DNA of 64,000 bases, taken from contig JAHJUI010000019.1 of NCBI GenBank assembly GCA_018829185.1, positions 5,757 to 69,756 on the forward strand, given 5' to 3'. This DNA is from Nanobdellota archaeon. Lineage in GTDB: Archaea > Nanobdellota > Nanobdellia > SCGC-AAA011-G17 > PNOQ01. Each line of letters opens with the position of its first letter. The stretch's first letter is position 1. The position numbers were made by a program, and so were the translations under genes. The notes under the pieces are model-generated. The model ran no database searches, was not told the origin of the DNA, and worked only from the letters and a program-made list of their open reading frames with translations. This document shows, piece after piece, positions 5,160 through 20,645 of the stretch.

Positions 5160-5340
5160 AGAATAAGCATCAAGGGGCAATTTTCGTCCGTTCGTCGTTC
5201 GTGGGGGAATTCCGTTTTTTGCTTCTTTTTTTTAAAAAAGAAGATTTTAGAGGGGGCTTTTATTTTGGTTCTTTTTCTAAAAGAACGGGTGGGAGAGAAG
5301 CGAGGGCGGGAAGTTTGGGGCGAGAAAACTATTTTCCGAT
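5160..5340. repeat. repeat module B, copy 1 (GC-richer; palindrome cttcttttttttaaaaaagaag)
   Basis: Inverted, diverged copy of 12543-12735. Shared blocks agttttctcgcccc, aaaagccccctc, cggaattccccc, aaaattgcccc and cccctgaaatt lie in the same order with similar spacing. Confidence 0.5.
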
Positions 5341-5342
5341 AT

Positions 5343-5352
5343 ATTTATAAAT
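5343..5352 (+). promoter_or_regulatory. candidate archaeal TATA box (tttataaata) about 26-35 nt upstream of the 5378 start
   Basis: Identical 10-mer tttataaata also sits at the same spacing upstream of the TBP gene (32974-32983). Confidence 0.35.
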
Positions 5353-5377
5353 ATTTGATTATATTTGTATTAGTAAT

Positions 5378-6292
5378 ATGACAATCTTCAAAAACTCAAC
5401 TAATAAACTCAACAGAATTAAACAATTATCTTTTAAGTTAGAGAAAGAGATTCAAGATTTGACAGAGAAAAATTTAAGTGATATTTTTGGATTACAAATA
5501 GTTAAATCAGAATTTTCTTTAAATGGATTAAGAATAGATACTCTTGCTTATGATAATGAAAATAATAGTTTTGTTATAATTGAATATAAACGAGATAAAA
5601 ATTTTAGTGTTATAGATCAAGGGTATGCTTATCTTTCTTTAATGCTTAATAACAAAGCAGATTTTATTTTGGAATATAATGAGAATTGCGATAGAAATTT
5701 GAAAAGAGAAAATGTTGATTGGTCGCAATCAAGAGTTTTATTTGTTTCTCCTGCTTTTTCAAAATATCAACAACAAGCGATTAATTTTAAGGATTTGCCT
5801 ATTGAATTGTGGGAAATATCAAGATATGAAAATGATTTAATCCAATATACAAGATTAAGGTCGCATGAAAATTCTGAATCAATAAACAAGATAAGTAAGA
5901 AAAGCGATGTTGTTGAAAAAGTAAGCAGTGAAGTAAAAGTTTATACTGAAGAAGACCATTTAAGCCATTGTTCAGAAGAAATTAAATCACTATATAATGA
6001 ATTAAAAAATCAAATTCTATCTATCGATGAAAATATTGAAGTAATTCCAAAAAAGAAATATATTGCGTTTAAATCAGATAGAAATTTTGTAGATATTTTG
6101 CCACAAAAAAGTAAAATAAAGTTTTGGCTTAATTTATCTAAAGGACAGCTTAAAGATGTTGATTCAATCGCAAGAGATGTTTCAAGCGTTGGTCATTGGG
6201 GAAACGGAGATTATGAAGTTTCATTCTCAAATTCTGAAGAATTGCCTGTTTTACTATCATTGATTAAACAAAGTTATGAGAAAAATAAATAG
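5378..6292 (+). CDS. hypothetical protein with N-terminal PD-(D/E)xK-like nuclease fold
   Basis: RIDTLAYD...SFVIIEYKRD gives a D...(E)xK arrangement. The C-terminal ~120 aa (IAFKSDRNFVDILPQKSKIKFW...GHWGNGDYEV) looks like a separate uncharacterised domain. It is the first gene inside the repeat-flanked island. Confidence 0.45.
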   Translation: MTIFKNSTNKLNRIKQLSFKLEKEIQDLTEKNLSDIFGLQIVKSEFSLNGLRIDTLAYDNENNSFVIIEYKRDKNFSVIDQGYAYLSLMLNNKADFILEYNENCDRNLKRENVDWSQSRVLFVSPAFSKYQQQAINFKDLPIELWEISRYENDLIQYTRLRSHENSESINKISKKSDVVEKVSSEVKVYTEEDHLSHCSEEIKSLYNELKNQILSIDENIEVIPKKKYIAFKSDRNFVDILPQKSKIKFWLNLSKGQLKDVDSIARDVSSVGHWGNGDYEVSFSNSEELPVLLSLIKQSYEKNK

Positions 6293-6300
6293 GGGTTAAA

Positions 6301-6450
6301 ATGGATTCAAAAAATATCACATTGCGAGTAAATTCTAAAGTTTATGATAGATACAGAGAACTTTGCAAGAAGAAAGGCTTATTAGTTTCTAGGCAGGTTG
6401 AAATAATGATGGAAGAACAATTAAAAAAAGAGGATGGAAACAATGAGTAA
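6301..6450 (+). CDS. small ribbon-helix-helix (CopG-like) protein, 49 aa (not in ORF track)
   Basis: My translation: MDSKNITLRVNSKVYDRYRELCKKKGLLVSRQVEIMMEEQLKKEDGNNE. A beta-strand (ITLRV) followed by two helices is the RHH pattern. Its stop overlaps the start of the RM gene (ATGAGTAA at 6443-6450). Confidence 0.5.
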   Translation: MDSKNITLRVNSKVYDRYRELCKKKGLLVSRQVEIMMEEQLKKEDGNNE

Positions 6451-9400
6451 AGAAAATTCTCTTTTCAAAGAAGCTACAATTAAAAGATTAGTTTCTAATG
6501 TTAATTTAACTGCTAAACATAAAAAAGCCGTAAACAAATGGTTAGATTATTTTAATAGTGGAAAATTAGAAAATGAAAAACAAGCATATATAGAATTTGC
6601 TAACATCATTCTTAGAGATTTATTAGATTATGACATCAGTCTTGAAGGTCTTAAACACGAAGAAGAAAACATAGAATTTTTATTTAAGAAAGATGGTAAT
6701 AATCTTATTTGTTTTGAAGCAAAAGGAGCAAAGACTAAAGACTTATGGGCTTATCAAGGAAGAGATAAAAAATCAAGAGAAACTCCAGTTAATCAAATAA
6801 ATTCTTATTTGTATGATAAAATAATTCCATTTGGCATTTTAACAAATTATAGATTATTTGTTTTATTTGATCGTAATGAAGGCAGTAAAAAATATCATCT
6901 AATTGATTTTACAGAATTAACTAAAGAAGATAAACTAAAAGAATTTATTGCTCTTTTCTCAAGAGAACAAGTAGAAAAAGGATTTATTACCGAAGTAATC
7001 CAACAATCCATTGTTGAAGAAAGAGAATTTACTAAAGAGTTCTATAAATTATATCACGAAACAAGGTTAATGCTAATTAAAGAATTTGAAGAAAATTCAG
7101 GGATTAGTAGAGAGGCTTCTGTTCATTTTGCACAATTATATCTTAATAGATTAATGTTTGTATTTTTTGCAGAAGATACTGGAAAAATTGATAAGAGAAT
7201 TATAGAAGAGAGGGTTATCAAAACATTAGATAACATTCATCTATTTTCATCAAATTCCTCAAATATTTCCAATGTTTTAGTTGGCTTGTTTAATGACTTG
7301 GATAAAGGAAGTGATTTTCCAGTTAAATTATTTGGGTTTAATGGTGGTTTGTTTAAACATCCAATTCCGCCAAAAATATTTTTTAAAGACTTTAGAGATG
7401 ATAAATTTTTCAAAGATGTAAATCAAAACTCTAAACTAAAGAAGAAAGAATTAGAATTAAACGACAATGAAAAAGAAGTATTTCACAAATACAAAAATAG
7501 GATTAGTCCAGTAATAAAAAATATTTTGATAATGGATTCTTTTGATTTCAATTCTGAAGTTAATGTAAATATTTTAGGTCATATTTTTGAGCAATCTATT
7601 TCCGATATTGAAGATTTGAAGACTGACAAAAGTTCTCGAAGAAAGAAAGAAGGAATATTTTATACTCCTGAATACATTACTGACTACATTTGCAGAAATA
7701 CAATTATAACTTATTTATCTAAGAAAGGAATTAATTCAGTTCCTGAATTAATAAAAGAATATGCTGAGAACATTGAAGAGTTGGAAGAGAAGTTTAAAGC
7801 AATTAAAATATTAGATCCTGCTTGCGGTTCTGGTGCATTCTTGATTAAAGCTACTGATATTATGCTTGAGATTTTCAGAGCAATTCAAGAGTTTAAGCAA
7901 AGCGAAGGAGAATATGAAGCAAAAAAAGGATTAAAAAAGAAAAGCAATGCAAAAGGACAATTAGTATTAGAAAAATGGAATGAAGAAGCAGAAGCAAGAG
8001 AAATAATCGAGAATAGTATTCATGGAGTAGATATTAACGAAGAATCTGTTGAGATAACAAAACTTTCTTTATTCTTAAAGATGGCTAGAAAGAATAGAAA
8101 GCTTACAGATTTATCAAATAATATAAAACAAGGAAACAGCTTAATCAATGATTCAGAAGTTGCAGGAGACTTGGCATTTGACTGGGATAAAGAATTTCCA
8201 TTCAAGTTTGATGTTGTTATTGGGAATCCTCCGTATGTTTTTGCAAGAGAAAAAGTATCTCAAGAAGAAAAAGATTATTATAAAAAATATTATGATTCTG
8301 CTGATTATCAGGTGAACACCTATCTGCTTTTTATCGAAAAAACAATAAGTCTATTAAAAGATAATGGAACTTATGGTTTAATTGTTCCAAATGCTTGGTT
8401 AATGGTTTATTCTGGAAAAGGATTAAGAAAGTGCATATTAGACACTTGTAAATTAAACCAGATAATAAATTTAGAGGGTTTTTCTTTTGATGATGTAAGT
8501 GTTGAAACAATAATTATACTTGCAGAAAAGAAAAAAACTGATAAAAGTACTTTTAAGGTATACTTAAACAATGGAAAAGAGTTCGTATTTTCTCATAAAA
8601 AAAATCAGTCTGAGTTCACTAAAAGTAAAGGTTTTGAATTTAAAATTTTTTCTGATGAAACTAGCACATCATTAACTGAAAAAATAAAGAATGGTTCAGT
8701 TATTCTTGATTCAATTGTACAGATTAAAGCAGGATTGCAAGCATACGAAAAAGGAAAAGGTAATCCCAAGCAATCTGCTAAAGATGTTAAAGAAAGACCA
8801 TATGATTATAATTATAAGTTTGATTTACAAACACACAAATATCTTGATGGTAAGGATGTAGGTAGATATTTTGTTTCTTGGTCTGGACTATATTTAAAAT
8901 ACGGCGAACACTTAGCAGCACCAAGAACTTTTAATTTATTTGATGGTAAGAAAATTATAATCCGAGAAATAACAGGGAGATATCCTAAAAGCATTATTGC
9001 TACATATAGTGAGGAACTATATCTATATAATAGGAGTAATATTGCTATTATTGAGAAAGAAAATAAAAAAATATCATTAAAATATATATTATCTGTTCTT
9101 AACAGTTCTTTAATTTCTTATTACTTTATGAAAAATACTGCAAAGTCGGTTAGAAAGATGTTTCCAAAGGTCATTCTAAAAGATTTACGATTATTTCCGT
9201 TTAAAGAGCTTAATATAGAAGAGCAAAAACCATTTATAGAGAAAGCAGACTTAATGCTAAATCTGAACAAAGAATTCTATGACAAAAAGGATAAATTCTT
9301 CAACAGAATAAAAAAGTCTTTTAATTTAGAAAAATTAAACAAGAAACTTGATTCTTTCTATGAATTGGAATTTAATGATTTTGTTAAAGAAATTGAAAAA

Positions 9401-9589
9401 TTAAGCAAAAAGAAACTTTCATTAAAAGAACAAGACGAATGGGAAGATTACTTCAATGAATATAAAAAAGATTTATCAAATTTAAAGAACAATATTGAAA
9501 AAACTGACAACGAAATTAATCAGATGGTTTACAAACTATATGGTTTATCTAAAGAGGAGATACAGATAATTAAGGAGAGTTTGAGATGA
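6434..9589 (+). CDS. type IIG restriction-modification enzyme (N-terminal PD-ExK endonuclease, gamma-class N6-adenine methyltransferase, C-terminal target-recognition region)
   Basis: LLDYD...ICFEAKGAKTKD (D...EXK) at the N-terminus. ILDPACGSGAFL (SAM motif I) and VVIGNPPYVFAR (motif IV, NPPY) in gamma order. About 450 aa follow the NPPY motif, enough for a TRD. Size of 1051 aa fits MmeI/Eco57I-like single-chain enzymes. Confidence 0.8.
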   Translation: METMSKENSLFKEATIKRLVSNVNLTAKHKKAVNKWLDYFNSGKLENEKQAYIEFANIILRDLLDYDISLEGLKHEEENIEFLFKKDGNNLICFEAKGAKTKDLWAYQGRDKKSRETPVNQINSYLYDKIIPFGILTNYRLFVLFDRNEGSKKYHLIDFTELTKEDKLKEFIALFSREQVEKGFITEVIQQSIVEEREFTKEFYKLYHETRLMLIKEFEENSGISREASVHFAQLYLNRLMFVFFAEDTGKIDKRIIEERVIKTLDNIHLFSSNSSNISNVLVGLFNDLDKGSDFPVKLFGFNGGLFKHPIPPKIFFKDFRDDKFFKDVNQNSKLKKKELELNDNEKEVFHKYKNRISPVIKNILIMDSFDFNSEVNVNILGHIFEQSISDIEDLKTDKSSRRKKEGIFYTPEYITDYICRNTIITYLSKKGINSVPELIKEYAENIEELEEKFKAIKILDPACGSGAFLIKATDIMLEIFRAIQEFKQSEGEYEAKKGLKKKSNAKGQLVLEKWNEEAEAREIIENSIHGVDINEESVEITKLSLFLKMARKNRKLTDLSNNIKQGNSLINDSEVAGDLAFDWDKEFPFKFDVVIGNPPYVFAREKVSQEEKDYYKKYYDSADYQVNTYLLFIEKTISLLKDNGTYGLIVPNAWLMVYSGKGLRKCILDTCKLNQIINLEGFSFDDVSVETIIILAEKKKTDKSTFKVYLNNGKEFVFSHKKNQSEFTKSKGFEFKIFSDETSTSLTEKIKNGSVILDSIVQIKAGLQAYEKGKGNPKQSAKDVKERPYDYNYKFDLQTHKYLDGKDVGRYFVSWSGLYLKYGEHLAAPRTFNLFDGKKIIIREITGRYPKSIIATYSEELYLYNRSNIAIIEKENKKISLKYILSVLNSSLISYYFMKNTAKSVRKMFPKVILKDLRLFPFKELNIEEQKPFIEKADLMLNLNKEFYDKKDKFFNRIKKSFNLEKLNKKLDSFYELEFNDFVKEIEKLSKKKLSLKEQDEWEDYFNEYKKDLSNLKNNIEKTDNEINQMVYKLYGLSKEEIQIIKESLR

Positions 9590-10320
9590 ATCAGGATATT
9601 TCTCAAAAAATATTTCAGCAAGCAATAGATTTATGGATTAAACCTGAAATGGATAAAAGAAAATCTTTGAAAAGATTGCCAAAAGATTTTAAATTAAGAA
9701 GTGCTCAAATATTGTTTTCTTTGGATAGAGGTTGGAATAAGGTAAGGCTTAATGAAGAAGTTAAAGCAGTTGCTAAATGCAAAATCAATTGTGCAAAAAA
9801 TAAAGGAGATGCAATTTATGAAAAGGATATAGATGAAATTGAATCTATTAATCTAACTGAAAAAGATCCAAATTGTGCGCATATCACTTTATTATTATTT
9901 AAGAATAATTGGGTAATTTCATTTGATTTTGCATATAATAAGAAAAGAATTAAAGAGCATATAGATGTAGCTAAAGAATTTTTTGAGAGTGCCAAAGATA
10001 ATCTAGAAAAGAAGAGATTAAGACCATTTTTTGAAAATTCTTTTGCTTGTGCAGAACTTTCAGCAAAGGCTGTTTTACTTCAATTGCCAGATAAAGAGAT
10101 TTTACAAGGTAAGGATCATTCAACGAGAATTAATAAGTTTAAAAACTGGGCTAGTTTAGGCAATGTTAAACAAGAGCATTCAGAGATATTAGAAAGACTG
10201 AATCAACTCAGATCTTCTGCAAGATATTTATGTTCTACTGAATTTAAGAAAGAAAAACCAAAAGAGATTATATCTAAATTAAGCGAAATGATAAATTTTG
10301 CAGAGAGTAGGATAAAATGA
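9586..10320 (+). CDS. hypothetical protein, all-alpha C-terminal half (RM-linked)
   Basis: ATGA overlap with the RM gene at 9586-9589. No catalytic motif is confidently recognised. The C-terminal region (SAKAVLLQLPDKEILQGKDHSTRINKF) is helical. Confidence 0.45.
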   Translation: MNQDISQKIFQQAIDLWIKPEMDKRKSLKRLPKDFKLRSAQILFSLDRGWNKVRLNEEVKAVAKCKINCAKNKGDAIYEKDIDEIESINLTEKDPNCAHITLLLFKNNWVISFDFAYNKKRIKEHIDVAKEFFESAKDNLEKKRLRPFFENSFACAELSAKAVLLQLPDKEILQGKDHSTRINKFKNWASLGNVKQEHSEILERLNQLRSSARYLCSTEFKKEKPKEIISKLSEMINFAESRIK

Positions 10321-11099
10321 GTGATTTTCAACAAGTAAAAAATGTGGCAAAGAATTTTGTTAAAGAAAATAAAGAGTTTTTTGATAGATTTGAGAATGAA
10401 ATTGATGATTTGACTATTGGCAATTATTTTGATTTGTATTTGGGTAGTAAGGGAATCACTGCATTGAACACTGAAACAGAATTTGATAAGATGTATGATG
10501 ATGCTTTAGAAAAATTTCATAATGATAAAGAAAATTTACAAGATATAGAAAAATTGTTAATAGAGTTTCTTGATTTCTTAGTTTGGTTAAAAAAACAACA
10601 GGTCATTTTTAATGTTGACATTTCTGAACGTAAACAGTTACATAAAAATGCACTAGAGTATTCCAACACAATTAATAGAATTTATTTGAACAAAAATCTG
10701 GATGGAAAAGATAAGATTGAGATTTTGCTATTTTATTATTGTTCTCTTCAAGAGATATTTAAGAATGTTGTTCAAGAAGAACTGCTTTTGAATATTTGGA
10801 AACAAGGAAAAACTGATGTTTGTGATTTAAGAAAGAAACATATACAATTAGGTGATTTCAAAAATATAATTGAGAAATATGAAAAAAATAACAAACTATC
10901 GGATGGAATAAATAAGATATTTGATGTTGAATTAAGGAATAAAACACTTCATGCTGATTATTCTGTTAATAATGATGAAATTAAATATGGTTCAAAAAGT
11001 TTAAAAATAACTGATTTACAAAATAAAATAATTAAATTAGGAGTAAGTTTGCAGTTTTTTGTTTTATTTTACCTAAGACTATTTAAGGAATCTGATTAA
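10317..11099 (+). CDS. putative HEPN-domain protein (RNxxxH motif), Abi-like
   Basis: DVELRNKTLHADYSVN carries R-N-x3-H, the HEPN RNase signature as in the AbiD/AbiF (Abi_2)-type families. ATGA overlap with the upstream gene at 10317-10320. Confidence 0.5.
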   Translation: MSDFQQVKNVAKNFVKENKEFFDRFENEIDDLTIGNYFDLYLGSKGITALNTETEFDKMYDDALEKFHNDKENLQDIEKLLIEFLDFLVWLKKQQVIFNVDISERKQLHKNALEYSNTINRIYLNKNLDGKDKIEILLFYYCSLQEIFKNVVQEELLLNIWKQGKTDVCDLRKKHIQLGDFKNIIEKYEKNNKLSDGINKIFDVELRNKTLHADYSVNNDEIKYGSKSLKITDLQNKIIKLGVSLQFFVLFYLRLFKESD

Positions 11100-11100
11100 A

Positions 11101-12543
11101 ATGGCTCATCTCCTGACTAAATCTAAATATATGCAAGGACAACAATGTCTTAGATTATTATGGCTTTCTACAAATAAACTTCTTCCTGAAAAAACTATTG
11201 CTGAAAAGCAAAAGCTTGAACAAGGGCATGAATTTGAAGAATATGCTCATAAATTATTTCCTGATGCTGTAAATCTTGCTGAATTGGGATTCAATGAAAA
11301 TTTAGAAAAAACTAAAGAGTTAATAGAACAGAAAAAGATAATTTTTGAAGCAGGATTAAAAGTTGATGATATGTTTTTGAGAGCTGATGTTTTAGAGCCA
11401 ACAGAAAACGGCTGGAATCTATATGAGATTAAAGCATCCACAAAACAAAAACCTGAACATATCCCTGATTTAGCTTTTCAAAAATTTGTTTGTGAAAAAG
11501 CAGGATTAAACATAGAAAAAAGCTTTGTCTTACACTTAAATAAAGAGTTTATCAAAAATGGAAAGATAAACTCTAAAGAATTATCAACAATAGAAGAAGT
11601 TACTGAAAAAGTAAATCTTATTGATGATGTTGAGAATAATTCTAAATTATATCTTGAAATAATGAATTCAAAAGAAAAGCCTGAAATTTTAATCTCTAAA
11701 AACTGCAATTCCCCATATCCCTGTGCTGTTAAAAAAGATTGTTGGGGAACTTTACCAAAAAATAATGTTTTGCATTTGACAAATTGGAGAGTTTATTGGA
11801 ATCTTTTTGATGATGGAATTATTGACTTAAAAGATGTCCCAAAAGGCACAAAACTAACTCCAAAGGATGAAATCATCTTAGAAGGAGAAACCCAAGAAAA
11901 AATAATGATTTCAAAAGAACATATTAAACATTTTCTGAATTCTTTAAAATATCCTCTTTGTCATTTGGATTTTGAAACTTTTGATACTGCTGTTCCGATT
12001 TTTGATAAATCAAGACCATGGCAAAAAATGCCATTTCAGTATTCTGTTCATATTCAGCCAGAAAATGGAGAAATTATTCATTATGAATATTTAGCTGAAG
12101 ATGGAGAAGATCCAAGACCTAAACTTCTTGAAAATCTAAAAGAACATGCAAAAGGTTCAGGAAGTGTTATAGTTTTTAATAAATCATTTGAAATAAATGT
12201 CTTAAACAAATTAGCAGAAGATTTTCCAGAGCATAAAGATTGGATTCAAAATGTTTTAGACAGAATTATAGATTTAGCTTTTCCATTTCAAAGTTTTTAT
12301 TATTATAATCCATCTCAAAAAGGAAGTTATTCAATAAAGAAAGTCTTACCAGCAATTACTGGAAAAGGGTATACTGGCTTAGAAATTGGGAATGGTGGAG
12401 ATGCAAGTGCATTATATTTTTACAGCCATGTAAAAAAAGAGATTGATGGAAAAGAAGATATAAGAAAAAATCTCTTGAAATATTGTTGTTTAGATACAGA
12501 AGGAATGGTTTGGATTATTGATGAATTAAGGAAGTTAGTTTGA
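11101..12543 (+). CDS. Cas4/RecB-like PD-(D/E)xK nuclease with Cys cluster, fused to a DEDDy-type 3'-5' exonuclease domain (DUF2779-like architecture)
   Basis: N-terminal half: GQQCLRLLW (first Cys), RADVLEP...NLYEIKASTK (D...ExK), AFQKF, CNSPYPCAVKKDC (C-x5-C-x5-C). C-terminal half: LDFETFD (exo I, DxE), VIVFNKSFEINVL (exo II-like), YCCLDTEGM (exo III, YxxxD). It starts 1 nt after the upstream stop. Confidence 0.6.
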   Translation: MAHLLTKSKYMQGQQCLRLLWLSTNKLLPEKTIAEKQKLEQGHEFEEYAHKLFPDAVNLAELGFNENLEKTKELIEQKKIIFEAGLKVDDMFLRADVLEPTENGWNLYEIKASTKQKPEHIPDLAFQKFVCEKAGLNIEKSFVLHLNKEFIKNGKINSKELSTIEEVTEKVNLIDDVENNSKLYLEIMNSKEKPEILISKNCNSPYPCAVKKDCWGTLPKNNVLHLTNWRVYWNLFDDGIIDLKDVPKGTKLTPKDEIILEGETQEKIMISKEHIKHFLNSLKYPLCHLDFETFDTAVPIFDKSRPWQKMPFQYSVHIQPENGEIIHYEYLAEDGEDPRPKLLENLKEHAKGSGSVIVFNKSFEINVLNKLAEDFPEHKDWIQNVLDRIIDLAFPFQSFYYYNPSQKGSYSIKKVLPAITGKGYTGLEIGNGGDASALYFYSHVKKEIDGKEDIRKNLLKYCCLDTEGMVWIIDELRKLV

Positions 12544-12735
12544 GTTTTCTCGCCCCCTCTATAAAAATATCGAACGAAGTGAGTGAAAATGTCCGAAGGA
12601 CTAAAAGCCCCCTCGTTATATTATTTCTTTTTCCGCAGAAAAAGGCACTCTGTCCGTAGGACTCGGAATTCCCCCCGTCGTTTTCGTTTTTAGTTCGTTT
12701 AGTTAAAATTGCCCCCTTCGTTAGCCCCTGAAATT
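12543..12735. repeat. repeat module B, copy 2 (inverted relative to 5160-5340)
   Basis: See 5160-5340. The reverse complement of copy 1 aligns block by block and the copy ends with cccctgaaatt. Confidence 0.5.
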
Positions 12736-12741
12736 ATTGAG

Positions 12742-12941
12742 TTTAACATCGGAATTTAACGAAGTTGAATTTTGAGAGCTGGAGAGAGCCGAGGCAAACC
12801 ACGGCGAGCGACCTCCAAAATTCAATTTGGGTGGAGAAACTTGCAAGGTTTCGGAACCGTTAAATTCCTGTTAGTTGCGTCGGAGCGTAGCGGAGACCGA
12901 GGGATAGTGCAACGATTTTTGCGAAGCAAAAAATCACGAAG
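12742..12941. repeat. structured repeat module A, copy 2 (same outer ends as copy 1; central ~97 nt inverted and expanded)
   Basis: tttaacatcggaatttaacg [centre] cgttaaattcctgttagtt...gcaaaaaatcacgaag. The centre contains atttgggtggagaaacttgcaaggtttcggaacc, the reverse complement of the copy-1 centre ggttccgaaaccttgcaggtttctccacccaaat. Confidence 0.6.
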
Positions 12942-12949
12942 AGTAAGTT

Positions 12950-13660
12950 TTAAGCGGTTGTAACTTTTAATATCTGTTTAACAAAGTAGTCTGGCTCTCG
13001 TTTTCCTCTATAAGCGGGATGTGGTCCAATATAAATAGACTTTCCCATATCTAACAACCTCTTTAATAAAAATTTTTTGTATTTGAAAGAATTGCTCTGA
13101 AATACAATTATATTTGGATTGAAGATTTTGACTTCTTCAATGAAAAAATTTAGTTCAATCTTTTGATCTTGGTGAATTCTATTTTCTCCACCTGTTCTCT
13201 TTTTTCTATTTATTGAAACAAATTTGTAATAGTTTGTTAAAGCAATATAAGATAATGGATTAATTGGAGGTAATTTTTCTTGATATTGCAGTGCTTTCTG
13301 ACAAGATAATATATTTTTGAGGTTGTTCCAATAATTCTGCAAATTAAGATCATCTTTTAGAAAAAATATTGCAGTAAAATATGTTCCTGCGATATGAGGA
13401 TTATGTTTTGATACTGGTTTTTCTTCTATTGCTTGTCTTCTTTCTTCAAAAGATTGAATTCCTCCAATTTTTTCATCTGAACCTATATCTAATCCGACAA
13501 TTAAAATCTTCTTAGAGTTACCATAGTTTGAACCAACATATGGGAAAGTCGGAAATTTAATTCGAGGACTGTTTTTTAAGCATCCAGTTTTTTTATCTAT
13601 ATCAAATTTCTTAAATAAATCTTGATACTCATTTTTTAACTCAGATTGTATCATAATCAA
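12950..13660 (-). CDS. hypothetical protein (weak resemblance to the UDG-superfamily motif pattern)
   Basis: KILIVGLDIGSDE resembles UDG family-4 motif A (h-V-G-E-x-P-G-x-x-E) and GPHPAYRG resembles motif B (HPSP). The resemblance is weak. It sits alone between repeat copies A2 and A3. Confidence 0.35.
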   Translation of the reverse strand: MIMIQSELKNEYQDLFKKFDIDKKTGCLKNSPRIKFPTFPYVGSNYGNSKKILIVGLDIGSDEKIGGIQSFEERRQAIEEKPVSKHNPHIAGTYFTAIFFLKDDLNLQNYWNNLKNILSCQKALQYQEKLPPINPLSYIALTNYYKFVSINRKKRTGGENRIHQDQKIELNFFIEEVKIFNPNIIVFQSNSFKYKKFLLKRLLDMGKSIYIGPHPAYRGKREPDYFVKQILKVTTA

Positions 13661-13710
13661 TTAAACGAGAACCAGACTTTATAATTTTACCGCTTAAAAC
13701 TTATTGCAAC

Positions 13711-13857
13711 TAACATCGGCATTAACAGAAGTCGGCGTAGCCGATTTGGACGAAGAAGTCTGCAAGACTTCGTAGTCTGTTAATGCCTGTTAGTTTCTCC
13801 CGAATACTTGGAGGGATTGATTTTTAGTGCAACGATGCCAAAGGCAAAAAATCAAAG
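13711..13857. repeat. structured repeat module A, copy 3 (covarying stem cattaacag/ctgttaatg)
   Basis: taacatcggcattaacag [centre] ctgttaatgcctgttagtt...tagtgcaacgatgccaaaggcaaaaaatcaaag. The outer stem sequence differs from copies 1 and 2 but stays complementary. The inner hairpin gaagtc-TGCAA-gacttc corresponds to gaaacc-TTGCA-ggtttc. Confidence 0.6.
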
Positions 13858-14050
13858 TTGCAAATTCTCGTTCATATGATTGAGAGGACACTTTAGGACG
13901 GTGGGTTCCGTCTGTAAAACCTATTAAATAATAGAAATTGTTGTTGTATTTTGTCTTGTGAGCCGCCGCCTTTTTTGCTTCTTTTTTTCTAAAAAAGAAG
14001 AGGGGGAGTTTCCGCTCCATCTAAGGAATAAAACACCGCGTAAGGAACAA
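13858..14050. repeat. repeat module B, copy 3
   Basis: Shares ttttttgcttctttttttctaaaaaagaaga..ggggg with copy 1. An inverted copy lies at 18540-18700 with shared blocks ttgcaaattctc, gagaggacacttta (14/14), agaaattgttgt and gtgagccgcc. Confidence 0.45.
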
Positions 14051-14095
14051 TAATGGAAGTTTTGAGTTCTAAATTCATATTTCCTTCTTGCCCAG

Positions 14096-14422
14096 ATGTG
14101 CAACATAAAAAGATTTAAAAAGAACCAAGTAAATATATTTATTATGCCTGATGAAAAAATTGCCAGAGCAATAAAAGCAAAAGTAAGAAGAGAAATGTTA
14201 CAGATACTTTGTCAAAAGGAAAAAATACCTGTTCATGAAATAGCAAATAAATTGAACATAACAGAGTCTTCTGCATCCAAACATTTGAAATTATTGTATG
14301 ATTTAGGTTTTGTAGATTTTGAAGAGAAACATCCAGAAAAATTTTATTTTCTTAAAATAAAAGAAATTAGAGAGCTATTTCAGGTCTATAATAAAATTAT
14401 CAAAAAATTAAGAGGTAAATGA
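14096..14422 (+). CDS. ArsR/TrmB-type winged-HTH transcriptional regulator
   Basis: VHEIANKLNITESSASKHLKLLYDLGFV is an HTH. ATGA overlap with the RuBisCO start at 14419-14422. Confidence 0.55.
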   Translation: MCNIKRFKKNQVNIFIMPDEKIARAIKAKVRREMLQILCQKEKIPVHEIANKLNITESSASKHLKLLYDLGFVDFEEKHPEKFYFLKIKEIRELFQVYNKIIKKLRGK

Positions 14423-15888
14423 AAATGAAAAAAGAACATAAACAATTGCTTAAAACACTTAATGAAAAACAACAAGCTTATGTAAACTTGAACTTGCCTG
14501 ACCCAAAAAATGGCGAGTATCTTCTTACAGTCTTTCATTTAGTTCCAAACGAAAAATTAAATATTTTACAAGCAGCTACAGAAGTTGCAGCAGAATCTTC
14601 TACTGGAACAACCTTTAAGGTGCAGACAGAAACCCCTTTTTCCAGAGAAATGAATGCTCTTGTTTATCAACTTGATTTAAAGAAAAATCTTGTATGGATT
14701 GCTTATCCTTGGAGGCTTTTTGACAGGGGAGGAAATGTGCAGAATATTTTGACATATATTGTTGGGAATGTTTTGGGAATGAAAAAAATAAATACTTTAA
14801 AATTATTAGATGTGTGGTTTTCTCCAGTAATGCTTGAGCAGTATGATGGGCCAAGTTATACAATAGATGATATGAGAAAATATTTGGATGTATATGACAG
14901 GCCTATTCTTGGAACCATTGTAAAGCCAAAAATGGGACTTACTTCTGCTGAATATGCAGAGGTGGCTTATGATTTCTGGGCAGGGGGTGGAGATTTTGTT
15001 AAAAATGATGAACCACAAGCAAATCAGGATTTTTGCCCATACGACAAAATGGTAAGATATGTAAAAAAAGCTATGGATAAAGCTGTCAAAGAAACTGGAA
15101 AGAAAAAAGTTCACTCTTTTAATGTTTCAGCAGCTGATTTTGATACTATGATTAAAAGATGTGAAATGATTAGAAATGCAGGTTTTGAACCAGGAAGTTA
15201 TGCGTTCTTAATTGATGGAATCACTGCTGGTTGGACAGCAGTGCAAACTCTTAGAAGAAGATATCCAGACGTATTTATTCACTTTCATAGAGCAGGTCAT
15301 GGAGGGTTTACAAGACCAGAAAATCCAATGGGATTCACAGTTTTGGTTCTGTCTAAATTTGCAAGATTAGCCGGAGTTTCAGGAATTCATACTGGAACTG
15401 CAGGTGTTGGAAAAATGTCTGGAAAGCCAGAAGAAGATGTTGTAGCTGCGCACAATATTTTAAGTTACATAGCAAAAGGACATTTTTTTGAGCAAAGCTG
15501 GGGAAAGATTCCTGAAAAAGATGAAGATGCTTCGAAGCTCGTTCATGAAGATGCAATTCACCATCTTATTTTAGAAGATGACAGCTGGAGAGGAATGAAA
15601 AAATGCTGTCCTATTATCTCTGGAGGATTAAATCCAATGTTATTGAAGCCGTTTATTGATATAATGAATAATACTGATTTTATTACAACAATGGGGGCAG
15701 GTGTTCATGCTCATCCAAGAGGGACTAAAGCTGGTGCAACTGCATTGGTTCAGGCATGCGAAGCTTATCTTAAAAAAATAGATATCAAAGAATATGCTAA
15801 AGACCATCCTGAATTAGCTGAAGCTATCAAGTTTTTTTCAAAAAAACCAAAGGATGTGGAAGTAGCTGAGGAAACTGAAAAGAGTTAA
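14419..15888 (+). CDS. rbcL: ribulose-1,5-bisphosphate carboxylase, large subunit, type III (archaeal)
   Basis: GGGDFVKNDEPQ (GxDFxKxDE), TIVKPKMGLT (carbamylated-Lys region), FIHFHRAGHGG (HRA.H) and the C-terminal GGL..M.. pattern. No small-subunit gene nearby, consistent with form III. Confidence 0.85.
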   Translation: MKMKKEHKQLLKTLNEKQQAYVNLNLPDPKNGEYLLTVFHLVPNEKLNILQAATEVAAESSTGTTFKVQTETPFSREMNALVYQLDLKKNLVWIAYPWRLFDRGGNVQNILTYIVGNVLGMKKINTLKLLDVWFSPVMLEQYDGPSYTIDDMRKYLDVYDRPILGTIVKPKMGLTSAEYAEVAYDFWAGGGDFVKNDEPQANQDFCPYDKMVRYVKKAMDKAVKETGKKKVHSFNVSAADFDTMIKRCEMIRNAGFEPGSYAFLIDGITAGWTAVQTLRRRYPDVFIHFHRAGHGGFTRPENPMGFTVLVLSKFARLAGVSGIHTGTAGVGKMSGKPEEDVVAAHNILSYIAKGHFFEQSWGKIPEKDEDASKLVHEDAIHHLILEDDSWRGMKKCCPIISGGLNPMLLKPFIDIMNNTDFITTMGAGVHAHPRGTKAGATALVQACEAYLKKIDIKEYAKDHPELAEAIKFFSKKPKDVEVAEETEKS

Positions 15889-15930
15889 TAACAAGATCAA
15901 GTTTTCATAGTTCTTCTTTTTTCTTTATAA

Positions 15931-16482
15931 TTGGTGTTAAGAATGAAAAAAGCAATATTTTTAGACAGAGACGGAACATTAATTGAAGATAGTGGTTATG
16001 CTTATAGAATAGAAGATTTAAAAATTTATCCTGGCGTTGTTGAAGGCCTAAAATTATTACAAAACGATTATTTGTTTTTTATTATAACAAACCAATCAGG
16101 AATTGGAAAAGGGTTCTACACAACAAAAGACTTTCATAGATTTAACAATTCTCTTTTAGAACAATTGAGAAACCAAAATATAAGAATAGAAAGAACATAT
16201 TTTTGTCCGCATATTGGTGATTGTAAGTGTAAAAAACCAAGTACAAAATACATAGAAGAAATTGTTTCTGAGTATAGTATTGATTTAGTAGAATCGTGGG
16301 TTATTGGAGATCATCCCTCTGATATTATTATGGGTAAAAATGCTGGTTGCAAAACAGCATACCTTCTTTCAGGGCATGGCACAAAACATTTTCAAGAGCT
16401 TGAATTAAAAAGAATAAAACCAACAATTATTACAGAAGATTTTTTATCTACTGCTAAATCTATTAGAGAATATGAAAACTAA
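15931..16482 (+). CDS. HAD-superfamily phosphatase, GmhB / histidinol-phosphatase-like
   Basis: AIFLDRDGTLIED (DxDGT motif I), IITNQSG (motif II), CPHIGDCKCKKP (GmhB-type Zn site), GDHPSD (motif IV). Confidence 0.65.
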   Translation: MVLRMKKAIFLDRDGTLIEDSGYAYRIEDLKIYPGVVEGLKLLQNDYLFFIITNQSGIGKGFYTTKDFHRFNNSLLEQLRNQNIRIERTYFCPHIGDCKCKKPSTKYIEEIVSEYSIDLVESWVIGDHPSDIIMGKNAGCKTAYLLSGHGTKHFQELELKRIKPTIITEDFLSTAKSIREYEN

Positions 16483-17512
16483 AATAATCAAAATAAATCC
16501 TGAAAAACTAGAGATATCTAAGGTCAAGATAGCGGCAGAAACTTTGAGAAAAGGGGGACTAGTGGCCTTTCCTACTGAAACTGTTTATGGTCTTGGGGCA
16601 GATGCTTTAAACTCGGAAGCTATTAAAAAAATATTTGAAGCGAAGGGAAGACCTATAGATAATCCATTAATAGTTCATATTGCAGATAAAAAAGAAGTTT
16701 ATAGGTTAGCAAGGGAAGTTCCAAGAGAGGCAGAAAAATTAATTAATAAATTTTGGCCAGGTCCTTTGACTATTATTTTGAAAAAGTCTAATATTGTTTC
16801 AGATATTATAACTGCTGGTTTAGATTCTGTAGCAATCAGAATGCCTAATAATAAAATCGCTCTAACATTAATTAAAAAATCTAAAGTTCCCATAGTTGCT
16901 CCATCAGCAAATCTTTCTGGAAAACCAAGTCCTACAATGGCTGAACATGTAATACAAGATTTATATGGGAAGATTGAGATTATTATAGATGGTGGTGAAA
17001 CAGATATTGGTGTTGAATCTACTGTTCTTGATTTAACTACAAATCCTCCAACCTTATTAAGGCCAGGGGGAGTTGATTTAGAAAAACTAAAAAAGGTTTT
17101 AGGCAAAATTAAGATATATCCAATGGTTAAAGGAAAACAGATAAAGAAAATTGCTGTTAAATCGCCGGGAATGAAGTACAGGCATTATGCCCCAAATGCA
17201 AAAGTGATTTTAGTTGAGGGAAAATATGAACGAGTTAAAAATAAAATTCAAGAACTTACAGATAAATACAAGAAGAAAGGGAAAAAGATTGCTATAATGA
17301 CCACTAATAAAAACTATAATTATAAAACAGGTGTAATAAAATTTATCGGAAAAGATTGTGATGTAATTGCTAAAAATTTATTCAAAACTTTTCGGGAATT
17401 TGATAAAGAAAAAGTTGATTTAATTATTGCTGAAGGAGTTAGTGATAATGGGCTAGGGCTTGCTGTAATGAACAGATTGAGAAAAGCTTCCTATAAAATT
17501 ATATGTATCTAA
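16472..17512 (+). CDS. sua5: L-threonylcarbamoyladenylate synthase (Sua5/TsaC, YrdC domain plus Sua5 C-terminal domain)
   Basis: GGLVAFPTETVYGLGADA and the RPLTII..K...D pattern are YrdC-domain hallmarks. About 140 aa of Sua5-type C-terminal domain follow. Confidence 0.85.
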   Translation: MKTKIIKINPEKLEISKVKIAAETLRKGGLVAFPTETVYGLGADALNSEAIKKIFEAKGRPIDNPLIVHIADKKEVYRLAREVPREAEKLINKFWPGPLTIILKKSNIVSDIITAGLDSVAIRMPNNKIALTLIKKSKVPIVAPSANLSGKPSPTMAEHVIQDLYGKIEIIIDGGETDIGVESTVLDLTTNPPTLLRPGGVDLEKLKKVLGKIKIYPMVKGKQIKKIAVKSPGMKYRHYAPNAKVILVEGKYERVKNKIQELTDKYKKKGKKIAIMTTNKNYNYKTGVIKFIGKDCDVIAKNLFKTFREFDKEKVDLIIAEGVSDNGLGLAVMNRLRKASYKIICI

Positions 17513-17547
17513 AATAAATATAGGGGTGTTAAATATTAATATGCAAA

Positions 17548-18426
17548 ATGAAAAAACATAAAATTTTATACACATCAGATATTCATGGAAATGAAGTTCA
17601 ATATTCAAAACTCATACAATATGCTATAAAGGTATCTGCGGACAGCATTATCATTGGGGGAGATATTGCTCCTAAAGGTGGGGCTATTGAAGATTATATT
17701 GAATATCAGAGAAATTTTTTAGAATATCGTTTACCAGAAATGCTACAACCCTTAAAAAAATATTTACCAAATTCTAACTTGTTTTTAATGATGGGAAACG
17801 ATGATTGTGCAGCTAATATGGATGTATTAGAAAATAGCAAATTGTTTAAAGTTATCCATAATAAAAGAATAAAATTAACAGAAGATTTTGAAATAGTGGG
17901 TTATTCTTTTGTACCAATTACCCCATTTGGAATAAAAGATTGGGAAAAATATGATTTAAGCAAAGTTCCAGCGACTTTGAAGAAAAAATATGCTGAAAGA
18001 AAATTAACAAATTATCGGCTTAATGGAATTAAGAGTATCAAAACCAGATGGAAAATATTTCAGTTTGATTCAGGCATGGAAGTACAAGATTCTATTCAAA
18101 AAGATTTGTCAAGAAAAATATTCAGTAAAAATCCTAAGAAAACTGTTTACATTATCCATTCTCCCCCAGATAATACTAAATTAGATATTGTATCAAATAG
18201 AAATCATGTGGGAAGTATGGCGGTAAGATTGTTCATTGAAAAAGAACAACCATATTTAACTTTACATGGACATATTCATGAGACTGTCGATATTTCTGGC
18301 ACTTTTAAACATAATATCAAAAACACTTTATGTTTAACTTCTGGAAATCATAATGTTGGCGAGCAATTGGCAGTATTAGTTTTTGATTTATATAATCCTC
18401 AAGATGTAAGAAGAATAATTATTTGA
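17548..18426 (+). CDS. calcineurin-like metallophosphoesterase
   Basis: ILYTSDIHGN, IIGGDIAPKG, MMGNDDC, IIHSPP and LHGHIHE are the MPE metal-ligand motifs. Confidence 0.7.
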   Translation: MKKHKILYTSDIHGNEVQYSKLIQYAIKVSADSIIIGGDIAPKGGAIEDYIEYQRNFLEYRLPEMLQPLKKYLPNSNLFLMMGNDDCAANMDVLENSKLFKVIHNKRIKLTEDFEIVGYSFVPITPFGIKDWEKYDLSKVPATLKKKYAERKLTNYRLNGIKSIKTRWKIFQFDSGMEVQDSIQKDLSRKIFSKNPKKTVYIIHSPPDNTKLDIVSNRNHVGSMAVRLFIEKEQPYLTLHGHIHETVDISGTFKHNIKNTLCLTSGNHNVGEQLAVLVFDLYNPQDVRRIII

Positions 18427-18539
18427 TAAAACAGAAAAATTTGCGTGTAATGAAATGAAACCTTTTATCCTAGGTTATGCGAAATTTTAATTTCGTGAGT
18501 TTTTTCTTGGTCGGATAAAAGAAGTTTTTCTGTGAGGAC

Positions 18540-18700
18540 AAAGTCCGAGACTATCTATCACGAAGTGATTAAGGCGGCTCACTTATTTTTTACAACAATT
18601 TCTACAATTTAGGGGCGGGTGGTCGGGGGTTTTAAAGTGTCCTCTCCTATATTTCGTTTTTTTCTTTAAAGTTAGAGAATTTGCAATTGTAACTAACAAG
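18540..18700. repeat. inverted, truncated copy of repeat B plus the terminal TGTTAGTT of module A (aactaaca at 18691-18698)
   Basis: Reverse complement reads ttgttagttacaattgcaaattctct...gagaggacacttta...agaaattgttgt...gtgagccgcc, collinear with 13788-13990. It lies 45 bp upstream of the tyrosine recombinase start. Confidence 0.45.
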
Positions 18701-18743
18701 TTATATAGATAAATTTATATATAATTTAGTTATATAAGGATGT

Positions 18744-19562
18744 ATGGACGAACTTGAGATGTTAAAGGTTGAATTAGACTATCGAGGATTTAGTAACAAA
18801 ACTAAGAAATCTTATACTTTCTTTGTGCATGATTTTCTAAAATATATAAAAAAGGAACCTTCTGATATCAATAAGGACGATATTAAAAATTATATCTCCC
18901 ACTTAATCACAAAGAAAGGATACACTAATATTACTGCAAACTTAGCAATAAGTTCTTTAAAATTCTTTTTTAGTAAAGTTCTAGAAAAGACTATTTGTGA
19001 TAAAATTGAAAGGCCAAAAAGAGAGAAAAATTTACCAAGTGTTTTGTCAAAAGAAGAAGTTAAAAGAATTATAGATTCCGGTAATAATATAAAACATAAA
19101 CTTGTTTTAAAATGTTTATATGGAATGGGTTTAAGAGTCTCTGAGTTAATTGATCTAAAAGTTAATGATTTAGAATTTGATAGAAATATGGCTAAAATTT
19201 CTTCTGGAAAAGGGAATAAACAAAGGTACGTTATGCTGTCTGGAATATTGAAATCTGATTTAATGAAATATATTGAATTGCAAAAACCTGAAAAATATTT
19301 GTTTTCCGGAAGAAAAGGAAAATATAGTGTAAAATCTATACAAAAAATATTTGAAAATGCTGCTAAAAAAGCTAAAATAAAGAAAAAAGCTAGCTGTCAT
19401 ACGTTAAGGCATTCTTTTGCTACCCATTTATTAGAAAATGGAACTGACATTAGATACATTCAAAAATTGCTTGGACATTCTAGATTACAAACTACTCAGA
19501 TTTATACACATGTAGCAGATAGTAAACTAAAAAATATTAAAAGCCCATTAGATGATTTATAA
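18744..19562 (+). CDS. tyrosine site-specific recombinase, XerA/XerCD-like
   Basis: C-terminal catalytic box HTLRHSFATHLLENGTDIRYIQKLLGHSRLQTTQIYTHV (R..H..R/H..Y) with the N-terminal core-binding domain. At 272 aa it is Xer-sized, with no obvious IntI-type extra domain. Confidence 0.8.
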   Translation: MDELEMLKVELDYRGFSNKTKKSYTFFVHDFLKYIKKEPSDINKDDIKNYISHLITKKGYTNITANLAISSLKFFFSKVLEKTICDKIERPKREKNLPSVLSKEEVKRIIDSGNNIKHKLVLKCLYGMGLRVSELIDLKVNDLEFDRNMAKISSGKGNKQRYVMLSGILKSDLMKYIELQKPEKYLFSGRKGKYSVKSIQKIFENAAKKAKIKKKASCHTLRHSFATHLLENGTDIRYIQKLLGHSRLQTTQIYTHVADSKLKNIKSPLDDL

Positions 19563-19607: not shown

Positions 19608-20645
19608 TTGCTTATTATCTATATGTATTTTCCTATTGAGCCAAAAATCAATTTAGAAAATTATCTTAATTTATTAATTGATGATAAAATAGACAACAGA
19701 ACAAATTGTCCTATCTGTATTGATGGTATTTCTGAGATTTTAGATAAAATCTATAAAGATTTGAAAGAAAATTATGGGGGTTATTTTCAGAAACTTTTAA
19801 AAAAACATGGATTAATGGGGCTTTATAGTTGGAAAGTTGATAGATATCCTATTCCTATTAGAAAATTAAAAATTCTTTTAAAATTGTGGAAAGAAATTTG
19901 TAAAAAATCTGAAAAAGAATGTGAAGAGTTATATAATAAAATATTTCAAAAAGCTGATTACTTTAGATTATTTAAATCACCATTAAGAATAAAATCTATT
20001 AAAATCTTAGACTCTAAACTGGCTTATTTGATGGGGGTTATCTATGCAGATGGTTCATTAAGAGATATTTGGAGGACACAAAGGAATGAAAAAAGATTTA
20101 GATTTGAATTTTCAATTGTGGATTCCGATAAAGAAAATTTAGAAAGTATAATTAAAATTTTGAATGAAAAATTTAGTATAAAAACTAATGTTAAAAGTGT
20201 ATATGATGGAAGATGGTATCGAATTTTATTTAGTAGTAATGTTTTTCATAGATTTTTAAATAAAGTTTTTGAGATGCCTTATGGGTACAAGAAAGGCAAA
20301 TTAAAAATTCCTGAAATAATAGAAGATTCCCCATTAATTATAAAGAAATATTTTTTGATTGGTTTCATGGATGGTGATGGAACTTGTATACAAAATATTA
20401 AAAGCAAAAATTCTAATTGTGTATCTATTTCTCAATCTAGTACTGAAATCTTATTAGACTTAAAGAAAATTTTAGCAGAGTTGGGATTCAGTTTCAATCT
20501 ATATAAAAAAACTAGGGATAAACATATTTGGTATGTTTTAGAAACAAAAGATAAAAAACAAATTAGAAAATTTTATGAAAAAGTTGGGTTTTTGTATCCA
20601 ACAAAAGCAAGGAAATTAGAATATGTTGTTAAAAATTTAATCTAA
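19608..20645 (+). CDS. free-standing double-motif LAGLIDADG homing endonuclease-like protein
   Basis: LAYLMGVIYADGSL and FLIGFMDGDGTC are two LAGLIDADG motifs about 100 aa apart. No extein or intron context. The true start may be downstream of 19608. Confidence 0.7.
   Translation: MLIIYMYFPIEPKINLENYLNLLIDDKIDNRTNCPICIDGISEILDKIYKDLKENYGGYFQKLLKKHGLMGLYSWKVDRYPIPIRKLKILLKLWKEICKKSEKECEELYNKIFQKADYFRLFKSPLRIKSIKILDSKLAYLMGVIYADGSLRDIWRTQRNEKRFRFEFSIVDSDKENLESIIKILNEKFSIKTNVKSVYDGRWYRILFSSNVFHRFLNKVFEMPYGYKKGKLKIPEIIEDSPLIIKKYFLIGFMDGDGTCIQNIKSKNSNCVSISQSSTEILLDLKKILAELGFSFNLYKKTRDKHIWYVLETKDKKQIRKFYEKVGFLYPTKARKLEYVVKNLI

Follow-up and report, generated by a model that had tools for sequence, protein, structure and literature searches.

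A form II/III RuBisCO gene block flanked by inverted repeats next to a xerA gene in a Nanobdellota archaeon: a possible member of an integron-like cassette array

Introduction

The DNA analysed here, referred to as the window, is a stretch of 64,000 nt of the forward strand of contig JAHJUI010000019.1 (positions 5,757 to 69,756; assembly GCA_018829185.1) from a Nanobdellota archaeon. Its GC content is 30% and it has archaeal marks, namely intron-containing tRNAs and topoisomerase VI. It contains a five-gene block with a RuBisCO gene, which is bracketed by inverted repeats and ends close to a gene for a XerA-family tyrosine recombinase. A preliminary description of this block had proposed either that the repeats mark operon boundaries throughout the genome or that the block is a recombinase-associated mobile cassette. 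We describe here the repeat modules, their relatives in other genomes and their association with Xer genes, and we give a probability of roughly 0.55 to the reading that the RuBisCO block is the recombinase-proximal member of a three-unit, co-oriented, integron-like cassette array (4971-18696) abutting the 5' end of xerA.

Results

Modules and gene units of the locus

Four GC-richer intergenic regions of the window (4828-5377, 12544-12949, 13661-14143 and 18427-18743) have modules in common, which we termed A, B1, C and D. These modules are confined to 4.9-18.7 kb, where A-B1 is present three times in one orientation, and no module copy was found in the remaining 50 kb of the window. Three units were predicted, 4971-12746 (unit 3), 12747-13713 (unit 2) and 13714-18696 (unit 1), which are co-oriented and end at the recombinase gene. 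The features are listed below with their evidence in brackets; ORF stands for open reading frame, and a slash within a motif marks a crossover or a breakpoint.

4965-5052, + strand: hairpin module A1 (GTTTAAC...TGTTAGTT), predicted crossover AA/C at 4970/4971 (motif positions; single-stranded DNA fold of -16.4 kcal/mol, z = -3.7)
5053-5115, + strand: B1 copy 1 (match to covariance model R1 at 5043-5115, 94.4 bits)
5116-5329, + strand: left D arm, with AATTTCAGGGGC, AAGGGGCAATTTT, GGGGGAATTCC, GAGGGGGCTTTT and GGGGCGAGAAAAC (five blocks, inverted at 12544-12735)
5378-12543, + strand: cargo of unit 3, comprising PDC-S18-like DUF5655, a type IIG restriction-modification enzyme, HEPN, a 260-aa ORF and Cas4-like DUF2779 (Pfam, PADLOC)
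12544-12735, - strand: right D arm, inverted (block matches)
12741-12876, + strand: hairpin module A2, interior partly inverted relative to A1, predicted crossover at 12746/12747 (z = -4.2)
12877-12944, + strand: B1 variant with a GCGAAGC mini-hairpin (R1 match at 12867-12944, 27.9 bits)
12950-13660, - strand: cargo of unit 2, a lone 236-aa ORF (ORF call)
13708-13795, + strand: hairpin module A3 (AACTAACA...TGTTAGTT), predicted crossover at 13713/13714 (-25.8 kcal/mol, z = -7.4)
13796-13858, + strand: B1 copy 3 (R1 match at 13786-13858, 101.2 bits)
13858-13967, + strand: left C arm, blocks C1-C4, named module B3 in the preliminary description (block matches)
14144-18426, + strand: cargo of unit 1, comprising an ArsR-type helix-turn-helix (HTH) regulator, form II/III RuBisCO, a HAD-IIIA phosphatase, Sua5 and a metallophosphoesterase (profile searches)
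18573-18686, - strand: right C arm, blocks C4-C1, inverted (block matches)
18686-18698, + strand: lone core ATTGtAACTAACA, candidate attI-like half-site, predicted crossover at 18696/18697 (motif)
18699-18743, + strand: AT-rich stretch with a weak palindrome, likely the recombinase promoter (AAGTTATATA...; sequence)
18744-19562, + strand: XerA-family tyrosine recombinase, 272 aa, with the catalytic R, K, HxxR, H and Y all there (NCBIfam, PDB matches)

On the minus strand, read outward from the recombinase gene, unit 1 has the order ...TTG/TTAGTT-C arm-cargo-C arm-B1-A3...GATG/, unit 2 the order TTAGTT-orf236-B1-A2...GATG/ and unit 3 the order TTAAAC-D arm-cargo-D arm-B1-A1...GATG/TTAAAC. The cargo bracketed by the D arms is a defence island. 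The 236-aa ORF of unit 2 had no family match in the domain libraries or in PADLOC.

Inverted arms around the gene blocks

Four inverted collinear blocks had been reported on the two sides of the RuBisCO genes, and these proved to be exact over 12, 14, 13 and 10 nt between 13858-13967 and 18573-18686. Block C1 (TTGCAAATTCTC) lies at 13858-13869 and 18675-18686, C2 (GAGAGGACACTTTA) at 13882-13895 and 18633-18646, C3 (TAGAAATTGTTGT) at 13932-13944 and 18592-18604, and C4 (GTGAGCCGCC) at 13958-13967 and 18573-18582, each inverted copy being exact. Chained together, these exact matches amount to 49 nt, compared to a maximum of 41 and a mean of 8 in 2000 dinucleotide shuffles. The sequence AACTAACA is present at 18691-18698 and again at 13708-13715, where it forms the left end of module A; the recombinase ORF starts at 18744, 45 nt past the copy at 18691-18698. 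Regarding the D arms, local alignment of the first intergenic region with the reverse strand of the second gave z = 24.

Left and right arms are separately conserved between genomes, including their spacers: near-identical counterparts of the left C arm are found in two other loci (L140 and L165, the loci of other genomes being cited by number) and a similar counterpart of the right C arm in L169. C arms like those of the RuBisCO block flank unrelated genes in L140, L159/L154/L190, L125 and L103.

The A-B1 family in other genomes

A search pattern of 22 bases across the A-B1 joint (CCTGTTAGTT-N25-35-TAGTGCAACGAT) matched at least 120 metagenome stretches from many environments, and the same architecture is present in several metagenome-assembled genomes (MAGs) of Woesearchaeota/Nanoarchaeota. 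A viral origin was rejected, as the B1 pattern had no match in IMG/VR. With a covariance model of B1, 138 matches were obtained in 100 loci. The GCGAAGC-type variant of the window is also present in L104, L112, L114, L126 and L143. Neighbouring B1 pairs were co-oriented in 37 cases out of 38, and contigs of at least 100 kb have one B1 cluster each, often at the contig end, a pattern compatible with a single localised array at which assemblies break.

With respect to genes, the elements are intergenic and unbiased in orientation (upstream ORFs 30 on the + and 35 on the - strand, downstream ORFs 33 and 40). Because this orientation is random, a role as promoter, terminator or untranslated region was rejected. 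The recurring layout is A-B1-arm(+), genes, arm(-), followed by A-B1-arm'(+), genes, arm'(-), with arms of types C, D, E and others; the order is for instance C(-)-A-B1-E(+) in L169 and D(-)-A-B1 in the second intergenic region of the window. In miniature inverted-repeat transposable elements (MITEs), terminal inverted repeats flank the element itself and a target-site duplication is formed. Since the arms described here match across the gene block and not across A-B1, a MITE model was rejected. No RAYT-like or transposase gene recurs near the elements, and clustering of the 592 flanking ORFs yielded only common paralogous families and Xer.

Conserved fold of modules A and B1

Module A folds into an outer stem (TAACA with TGTTA) bearing AAC...GTT, a 2-nt TC bulge, an 11-bp inner stem and a variable, branched (three-way) interior, with folding z of -3.7 to -7.4 for the three copies of the window. 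At least seven compensatory sequence versions of the inner stem were found, and that of A3 (GGCATTAACAG with CTGTTAATGCC) is compensatory relative to A1 and A2. The sites span 88-245 nt and have GTTTAAC or AACTAAC at one end and GTTAGTT at the other. The four leftmost bases differ between copies while AACATC is constant, as would be expected if crossover took place at AA/C and the outer bases were owned by the neighbouring unit.

Module B1 consists of two covarying helices around an invariant unpaired 11-mer, AGTGCAACGAT, plus a hairpin with a GNA triloop. It has 16 pairs, with 95.2% of the cells paired and 9 pairs changed on both sides. The covariation score, determined on an ungapped 73-nt subset with a hand-drawn structure, was 0.384, against 0.18 in shuffled data (reached in 0 of 500 shuffles) and at most 0.12 with slid partners. 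RNAalifold predicted no structure from the gapped B1 alignment, and a MAFFT alignment of the four intergenic regions was uninformative. The covariation of B1 and the compensatory stems of A indicate a selected structure and not a recent local duplication. Rfam searches with gathering and E-value thresholds, carried out on the region, the whole window and L108, returned only two tRNA genes with introns (444-567 and 29568-29662); both were missed by ARAGORN, which found none.

When the two C arms are placed around A3-B1, as they would be in a hypothetical circle, the resulting 434 nt fold into a single imperfect palindrome in which 63 pairs join arm to arm (-86 kcal/mol, z = -11), which suggests that the arms could extend or stabilise a recombination site.

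Some variation within the modules was also seen. In the 'minimal' A sites of L140 (630-660) and L147 (766-790), TAACATCGGAATT is directly joined to CCTGTTAGTT; full-length sites have a TAACG...CGTTA segment between two AATT copies, which looks like a nested insertion at the palindrome centre. A 44-nt segment of A1 (4975-5018) is inverted at 98% identity in A2 (12825-12868) and the hairpin ends keep their orientation, so that the interior of A seems able to flip or to be swapped; breakpoints at an ATTTGG joint in other loci agree with this. Finally, short GC stems closed by GAA, GTA or AAA triloops, among them the very stable GCGAAGC motif, cluster in the four intergenic regions (5093-5103, 12591-12601, 12652-12662, 12919-12925, 13732-13744, 13836-13846 and 18536-18546), and their purine-rich loops are always on the + strand, regardless of module orientation.

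Homology breakpoints

Breakpoints of homology were determined by an all-against-all comparison of the loci. Of the 67 internal breakpoints, 21 lay within about 8 nt of an A core, compared to 1.8 expected and a maximum of 7 in 200 randomisations, and several others coincided with the ATTTGG joint within A or fell within B1. Two loci from different data sets, L145 and L201, share a unit of 4126 nt at 100% identity, with unlike flanks on either side; its boundaries are ...G/TTATATG... and ...CCCGATG/TTA.... Similarly, L142 and L153, which are 92% identical, diverge at ATTGAATATAA/C. As judged from these junctions, the crossover appears to take place at G/TT (AA/C on the other strand).

Within the species of the window, independent assemblies end at 13797 and at 18690 or 18725, and the left flank of L003 departs from the window at 18586; these recurrent contig ends and the L003 flank are the only hints of heterogeneity. 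Contig ends or variants at the edges of block C4 (13972 and 18586) were also seen in sample ERR2191545.

The recombinase and its association with the arrays

The recombinase passed the NCBIfam XerA equivalog NF040815 (260.7 bits, cut-off 220), and its closest solved structures are XerA of Thermoplasma and Pyrococcus (5HXY and 4A8E). By contrast, its score with the integron integrase model TIGR02249 was 238.5, below the cut-off of 265. Integron integrases have an IntI-specific additional domain around patch III. The recombinase aligns well with IntI4 (2A3V), but its residues 182-197 (16 aa) face residues 186-245 of IntI4 (60 aa), which indicates that this additional domain is absent.

Among the neighbourhoods of 80 Xer homologues (1.2 Mb), 7 B1 matches were found in six Woesearchaeota/Nanoarchaeota loci, all 7 being upstream of Xer and on the same strand. 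In the metagenome set, 8 of the 120 loci listed (731 kb) have a Xer homologue, and the nearest upstream B1 is co-oriented with it in 7 of these 8. In the window, L108, L200, L181 and L205, the Xer start codon is preceded at a distance of 45-95 nt by the motif ATTGnAACTAACA (ATTG-N-AACTAACA). The target of XerA is a single dif site, in which 11-bp inverted arms flank a 6-bp spacer. With regard to such a site, most related loci have, past the core, a palindrome with arms of 11-15 bp whose sequence differs from genome to genome, and the window has only a weak AT-rich palindrome at 18699-18726.

The genes between the last A-B1 and Xer differ wholly between loci and include a Tsp45I restriction-modification system, glycan-modification, beta-propeller, peptidase and unknown proteins; in L045 and L056, the Xer-adjacent genes are again flanked by inverted collinear blocks. 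A synteny comparison based on Xer homologues found no common neighbours, the nearest representatives being at most 50% identical. The Xer-nearest unit of L108 (324-984; also in L200, L111 and L113) carries, besides a small lysine-rich ORF, some 200 nt of GC-rich sequence (541-740) that matched no Rfam family; it is tandemly duplicated in L108 and L113.

The RuBisCO unit

The gene content given above for unit 1 agrees with that first described, except for the class of the RuBisCO large chain, which had been called type III. The protein failed TIGR03326 (356 bits, cut-off 497) and passed NF010002 (639 bits, cut-off 489), and its database relatives carry the name Form II/III; it is a form II/III and not a type III enzyme. 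The ATGA overlap at 14419-14422, taken to couple the HTH and RuBisCO genes translationally, does exist, but gene calls and homologues (487 aa) start at ATG 14425, two bases past the HTH stop, so that the coupling is tight and the overlap not certain.

RuBisCO homologues 80-92% identical are present in Woese-, Pace-, Aenigm- and Micrarchaeota and in bacteria of the candidate phyla radiation (CPR), in differing gene contexts. Within the species, place and order of the block are the same in all assemblies found, but relatives with 86-92% identity do not have the HAD, Sua5, phosphoesterase and Xer genes. The presence of homologues in other contexts without these neighbours shows that the five-gene block is not a conserved unit. 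The gene of the window differs from the form II/III genes of other DPANN and CPR genomes in lying within a bracketed unit by XerA, with HAD, Sua5 and phosphoesterase, and it is not accompanied by AMP phosphorylase or ribose-1,5-bisphosphate isomerase as in the nucleotide-salvage context.

Two groups of relatives had further features. In L215 (9725-10005), and likewise in L216 and L217, a RuBisCO 86% identical to that of the window is preceded by an HTH remnant with an internal deletion and, further up, by a decayed B1-like sequence and a AGTAAAATTTGAGTTCCAAT module, which follows B1 in L135, L139 and L163 and resembles a stretch at about 14062-14090 of the window. In L213 (1440-3263) and L212, the RuBisCO is 92% identical to that of the window and forms an AT-rich gene with its leader within a GC-rich contig binned as Methanogenium sp. 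(GCA_023128355.1). A methanogen may recently have acquired this DPANN-type form II/III gene, or the contig or bin could be chimeric.

Other features of the window

The recombinase gene is directly followed by a free-standing LAGLIDADG homing-endonuclease-like ORF of 345 aa (19608-20645), which extends over the end of the topoisomerase VI A gene; no such ORF was found beside the Xer homologues of other genomes. Three further intergenic GC-rich islands (32715-32890, 59073-59266 and 61033-61259; 45-47% GC compared to 30%) had no Rfam match and are candidates for unannotated structured RNAs.

Discussion

The reading as an integron-like array is built on the observed layout of the units, the conservation of the fold, the common orientation within arrays, the Xer association and the positions of the breakpoints. 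According to this reading, each unit would begin with an A + B1 junction and continue with a left arm and the cargo, and the inverted arm on its right would end in ATTG-N-AACTAA. Units would be gained, lost and reshuffled by site-specific recombination at the AA/C (G/TT) core of hairpin A, and new units would enter at the lone core beside the recombinase gene, A + B1 taking the attC role and the lone core the attI role. XerA would presumably be the catalyst, and hence an enzyme of the Xer type without the integron-integrase insertion, and the site would act as folded single-stranded DNA. Circular intermediates are expected: in a circular unit both arms would flank A-B1 and could extend the hairpin to an imperfect palindrome of about 430 nt, giving arms and B1 a putative role in recombination. 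For the RuBisCO unit, which may itself have been acquired in this way, the predicted circle junction (18696 to 13714) would read ...CAATTGTAACTAA/CATCGGCATTAAC... and the predicted empty-site junction (13713 to 18697) ...CTTATTGCAACTAA/CAAGTTATATAG....

The attC sites of integrons are imperfect palindromes that end in RYYYAAC...GTTRRRY, contain bases that are unpaired or extrahelical and have a variable centre (57-141 nt); most integron cassettes consist of one promoterless ORF, with a common orientation. The units described here resemble those of integrons, including the archaeal ones (Ghaly et al. 2022, PMC9668308), in that they are co-oriented, are parted by imperfect-palindrome hairpin sites with AAC...GTT ends, bulged bases and a variable centre, and have an apparent G/TT crossover beyond which the bases vary with the neighbouring unit. 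As in integrons, one end has a simple site together with a recombinase gene directed away from the array, and the cargo varies between genomes. Unit 2, about 1 kb long and oriented as expected, is a typical single-ORF unit and the only one of its kind in the window; the units of 5.0 and 7.8 kb each comprise five genes, which are encoded on the opposite strand relative to the array direction. In contrast to integrons, units reach 7.8 kb and hold several genes in either orientation, housekeeping genes included, a structured B1 accompanies every site, inverted arms bracket the cargo, and the recombinase scores as XerA and is devoid of the IntI-specific domain.

Other elements exploit Xer recombinases, such as integrative mobile elements exploiting Xer (IMEX), among them the CTX phage with its folded single-stranded attP, and there are XerS with difSL beside its gene and the pdif modules of Acinetobacter. 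The system described here shares with them a Xer-family enzyme, a site beside its gene, arrays of inserted elements, a hairpin site and modules bracketed by inverted repeats. However, no 11-6-11 dif-like core is conserved between genomes and the Xer-side palindromes differ; pdif modules are bracketed by the 28-bp Xer sites themselves and not by multi-block arms, and the dif sites of Thermococcales, unlike the site described here, are not beside xerA. The term IMEX is not used in a 2021 review of archaeal tyrosine recombinases.

Several observations weigh against an integron-like array. All contigs of the window's species are 100% identical with the same gene order, and no excised circle or empty site was seen among them. 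Nothing in the data shows directly that the RuBisCO unit has itself been mobile; among its genes is Sua5, normally a housekeeping gene, its order is fixed in the species and close RuBisCO homologues elsewhere lack intact modules. The bracketed cargo includes housekeeping genes in other genomes as well (LeuRS in L178, Mre11-Rad50 in L180). The recombinase may simply be the housekeeping chromosome-dimer resolvase, located beside a repeat-rich region. Its association with B1 also has exceptions: in L182, the two B1 copies nearest Xer are inverted, with five co-oriented copies further upstream, and L092 has one inverted B1 copy downstream of Xer. Assemblies tend to break or become chimeric at repeats of this kind, and the result can look like a breakpoint at a repeat edge; the difference between L111 and L200 is possibly such a case. 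The ratio of G.T to A.C is 17:13 in B1 and 26:2 in A, the latter mostly from one lineage, so that the folding strand is not clearly signalled. Lastly, B1 and the arms have no integron counterpart. The proposal of a recombinase-associated mobile cassette gains from the co-oriented arrays, from the same-orientation enrichment upstream of XerA homologues and from the breakpoints at the hairpin core, but none of this evidence concerns the RuBisCO unit.

The bacterial interspersed mosaic elements (BIMEs) and repetitive extragenic palindromic (REP) sequences of enterobacteria and the BOX elements of pneumococci are intergenic mosaics of short modules and hairpins, REP being dispersed genome-wide, often with a RAYT gene. 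The main rival explanation, which we consider unlikely, is that the modules described here are repeats of this kind, that is, selfish or structural intergenic modules between operons, such as protein-binding, supercoiling or transcript-end sites, with the gene blocks not mobile. Homologous recombination and assembly artefacts would then account for the breakpoints, and a repeat-rich chromosomal region for the closeness to xerA. The mosaic combination of conserved short modules, rich in hairpins, strictly intergenic and neutral in orientation relative to genes, agrees with this explanation, as do the housekeeping operons among the bracketed blocks, the arrangement fixed in the window's species and the location of some breakpoints at internal joints such as ATTTGG and not at the core. 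The idea that the repeats mark operon boundaries genome-wide holds to the extent that the family punctuates gene blocks in many genomes and that C arms flank unrelated cargo. In the window, however, all copies are beside the recombinase, with three copies in 14 kb against none in the other 50 kb, and long contigs have a single cluster. Dispersed mosaic repeats would not readily account for this clustering, the near-uniform orientation of neighbouring pairs (37/38), the consistent side and orientation relative to Xer, the arms matching across gene blocks, or the exact G/TT junctions and unrelated flanks on both sides of a 100% identical unit, and no RAYT-like or transposase gene recurs.

A function at the RNA level appears quite improbable. 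A-B1 would then be a structured small RNA or an untranslated-region element, and the arms would pair in the transcript as a processing or stabilising stem, as in archaeal rRNA processing stems. The strong covariation of B1 and A, the ability of the arms to pair and the invariant unpaired 11-mer, typical of functional RNA loops, are all compatible with such a role. On the other hand, A-B1 matches no Rfam family, has no consistent flanking promoter or T-run, its left flank being the previous arm, and is randomly oriented relative to genes; the arms share only four short blocks, B1 has no excess of G.U over A.C, and both the Xer association and the G/TT breakpoints would be left unexplained. Inversion of the RuBisCO block between the C arms by the recombinase, as in phase-variable invertons or shufflons, is hardly credible and was rejected: although inverted repeats adjoin a tyrosine recombinase gene and contig ends or variants occur at the C4 edges in ERR2191545, no assembly has the inverted orientation, the L003 variant is without block C4 and does not continue on its left with the reverse complement of what lies within the left arm, the arms, being interrupted blocks, are unlike a recombinase core site, and the same arm pairs flank many unrelated blocks far from any recombinase.

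A-B1 is a widespread structured element with strong covariation that deserves description even if the mobility model fails. It was not found in the sources searched: the repeat motifs are absent from the text-form supplementary files of the archaeal integron paper (Ghaly et al. 2022, PMC9668308), and neither the literature searches nor the available sections of the 2021 review yielded a description of this repeat system. Beyond the integron-like reading of the locus, we tentatively propose that Woese-/Pacearchaeota-type DPANN may possess a cassette-capture platform distinct from integrons, in which an ordinary XerA without the IntI insertion would use large folded sites with a G/TT core, made of hairpin A and B1 and lengthened by the paired arms, to stockpile and exchange entire operons, among them defence systems and form II/III RuBisCO. 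If so, it could help to explain why synteny is poor and metabolism patchy in these genomes, and it could be a living analogue of the Xer-like ancestor of integrons.

To our knowledge, gene transfer in DPANN archaea is known from phylogeny and not from mechanism. If the integron-like reading holds, it would provide a concrete, sequence-defined route by which RuBisCO-type metabolic genes and defence systems are passed among these archaea, with a testable site made of a core, a hairpin and an invariant 11-mer. It would also mean that cassettes can be handled in an integron-like manner without the integron-specific domain, which bears on the origin of integrons from Xer-like enzymes.

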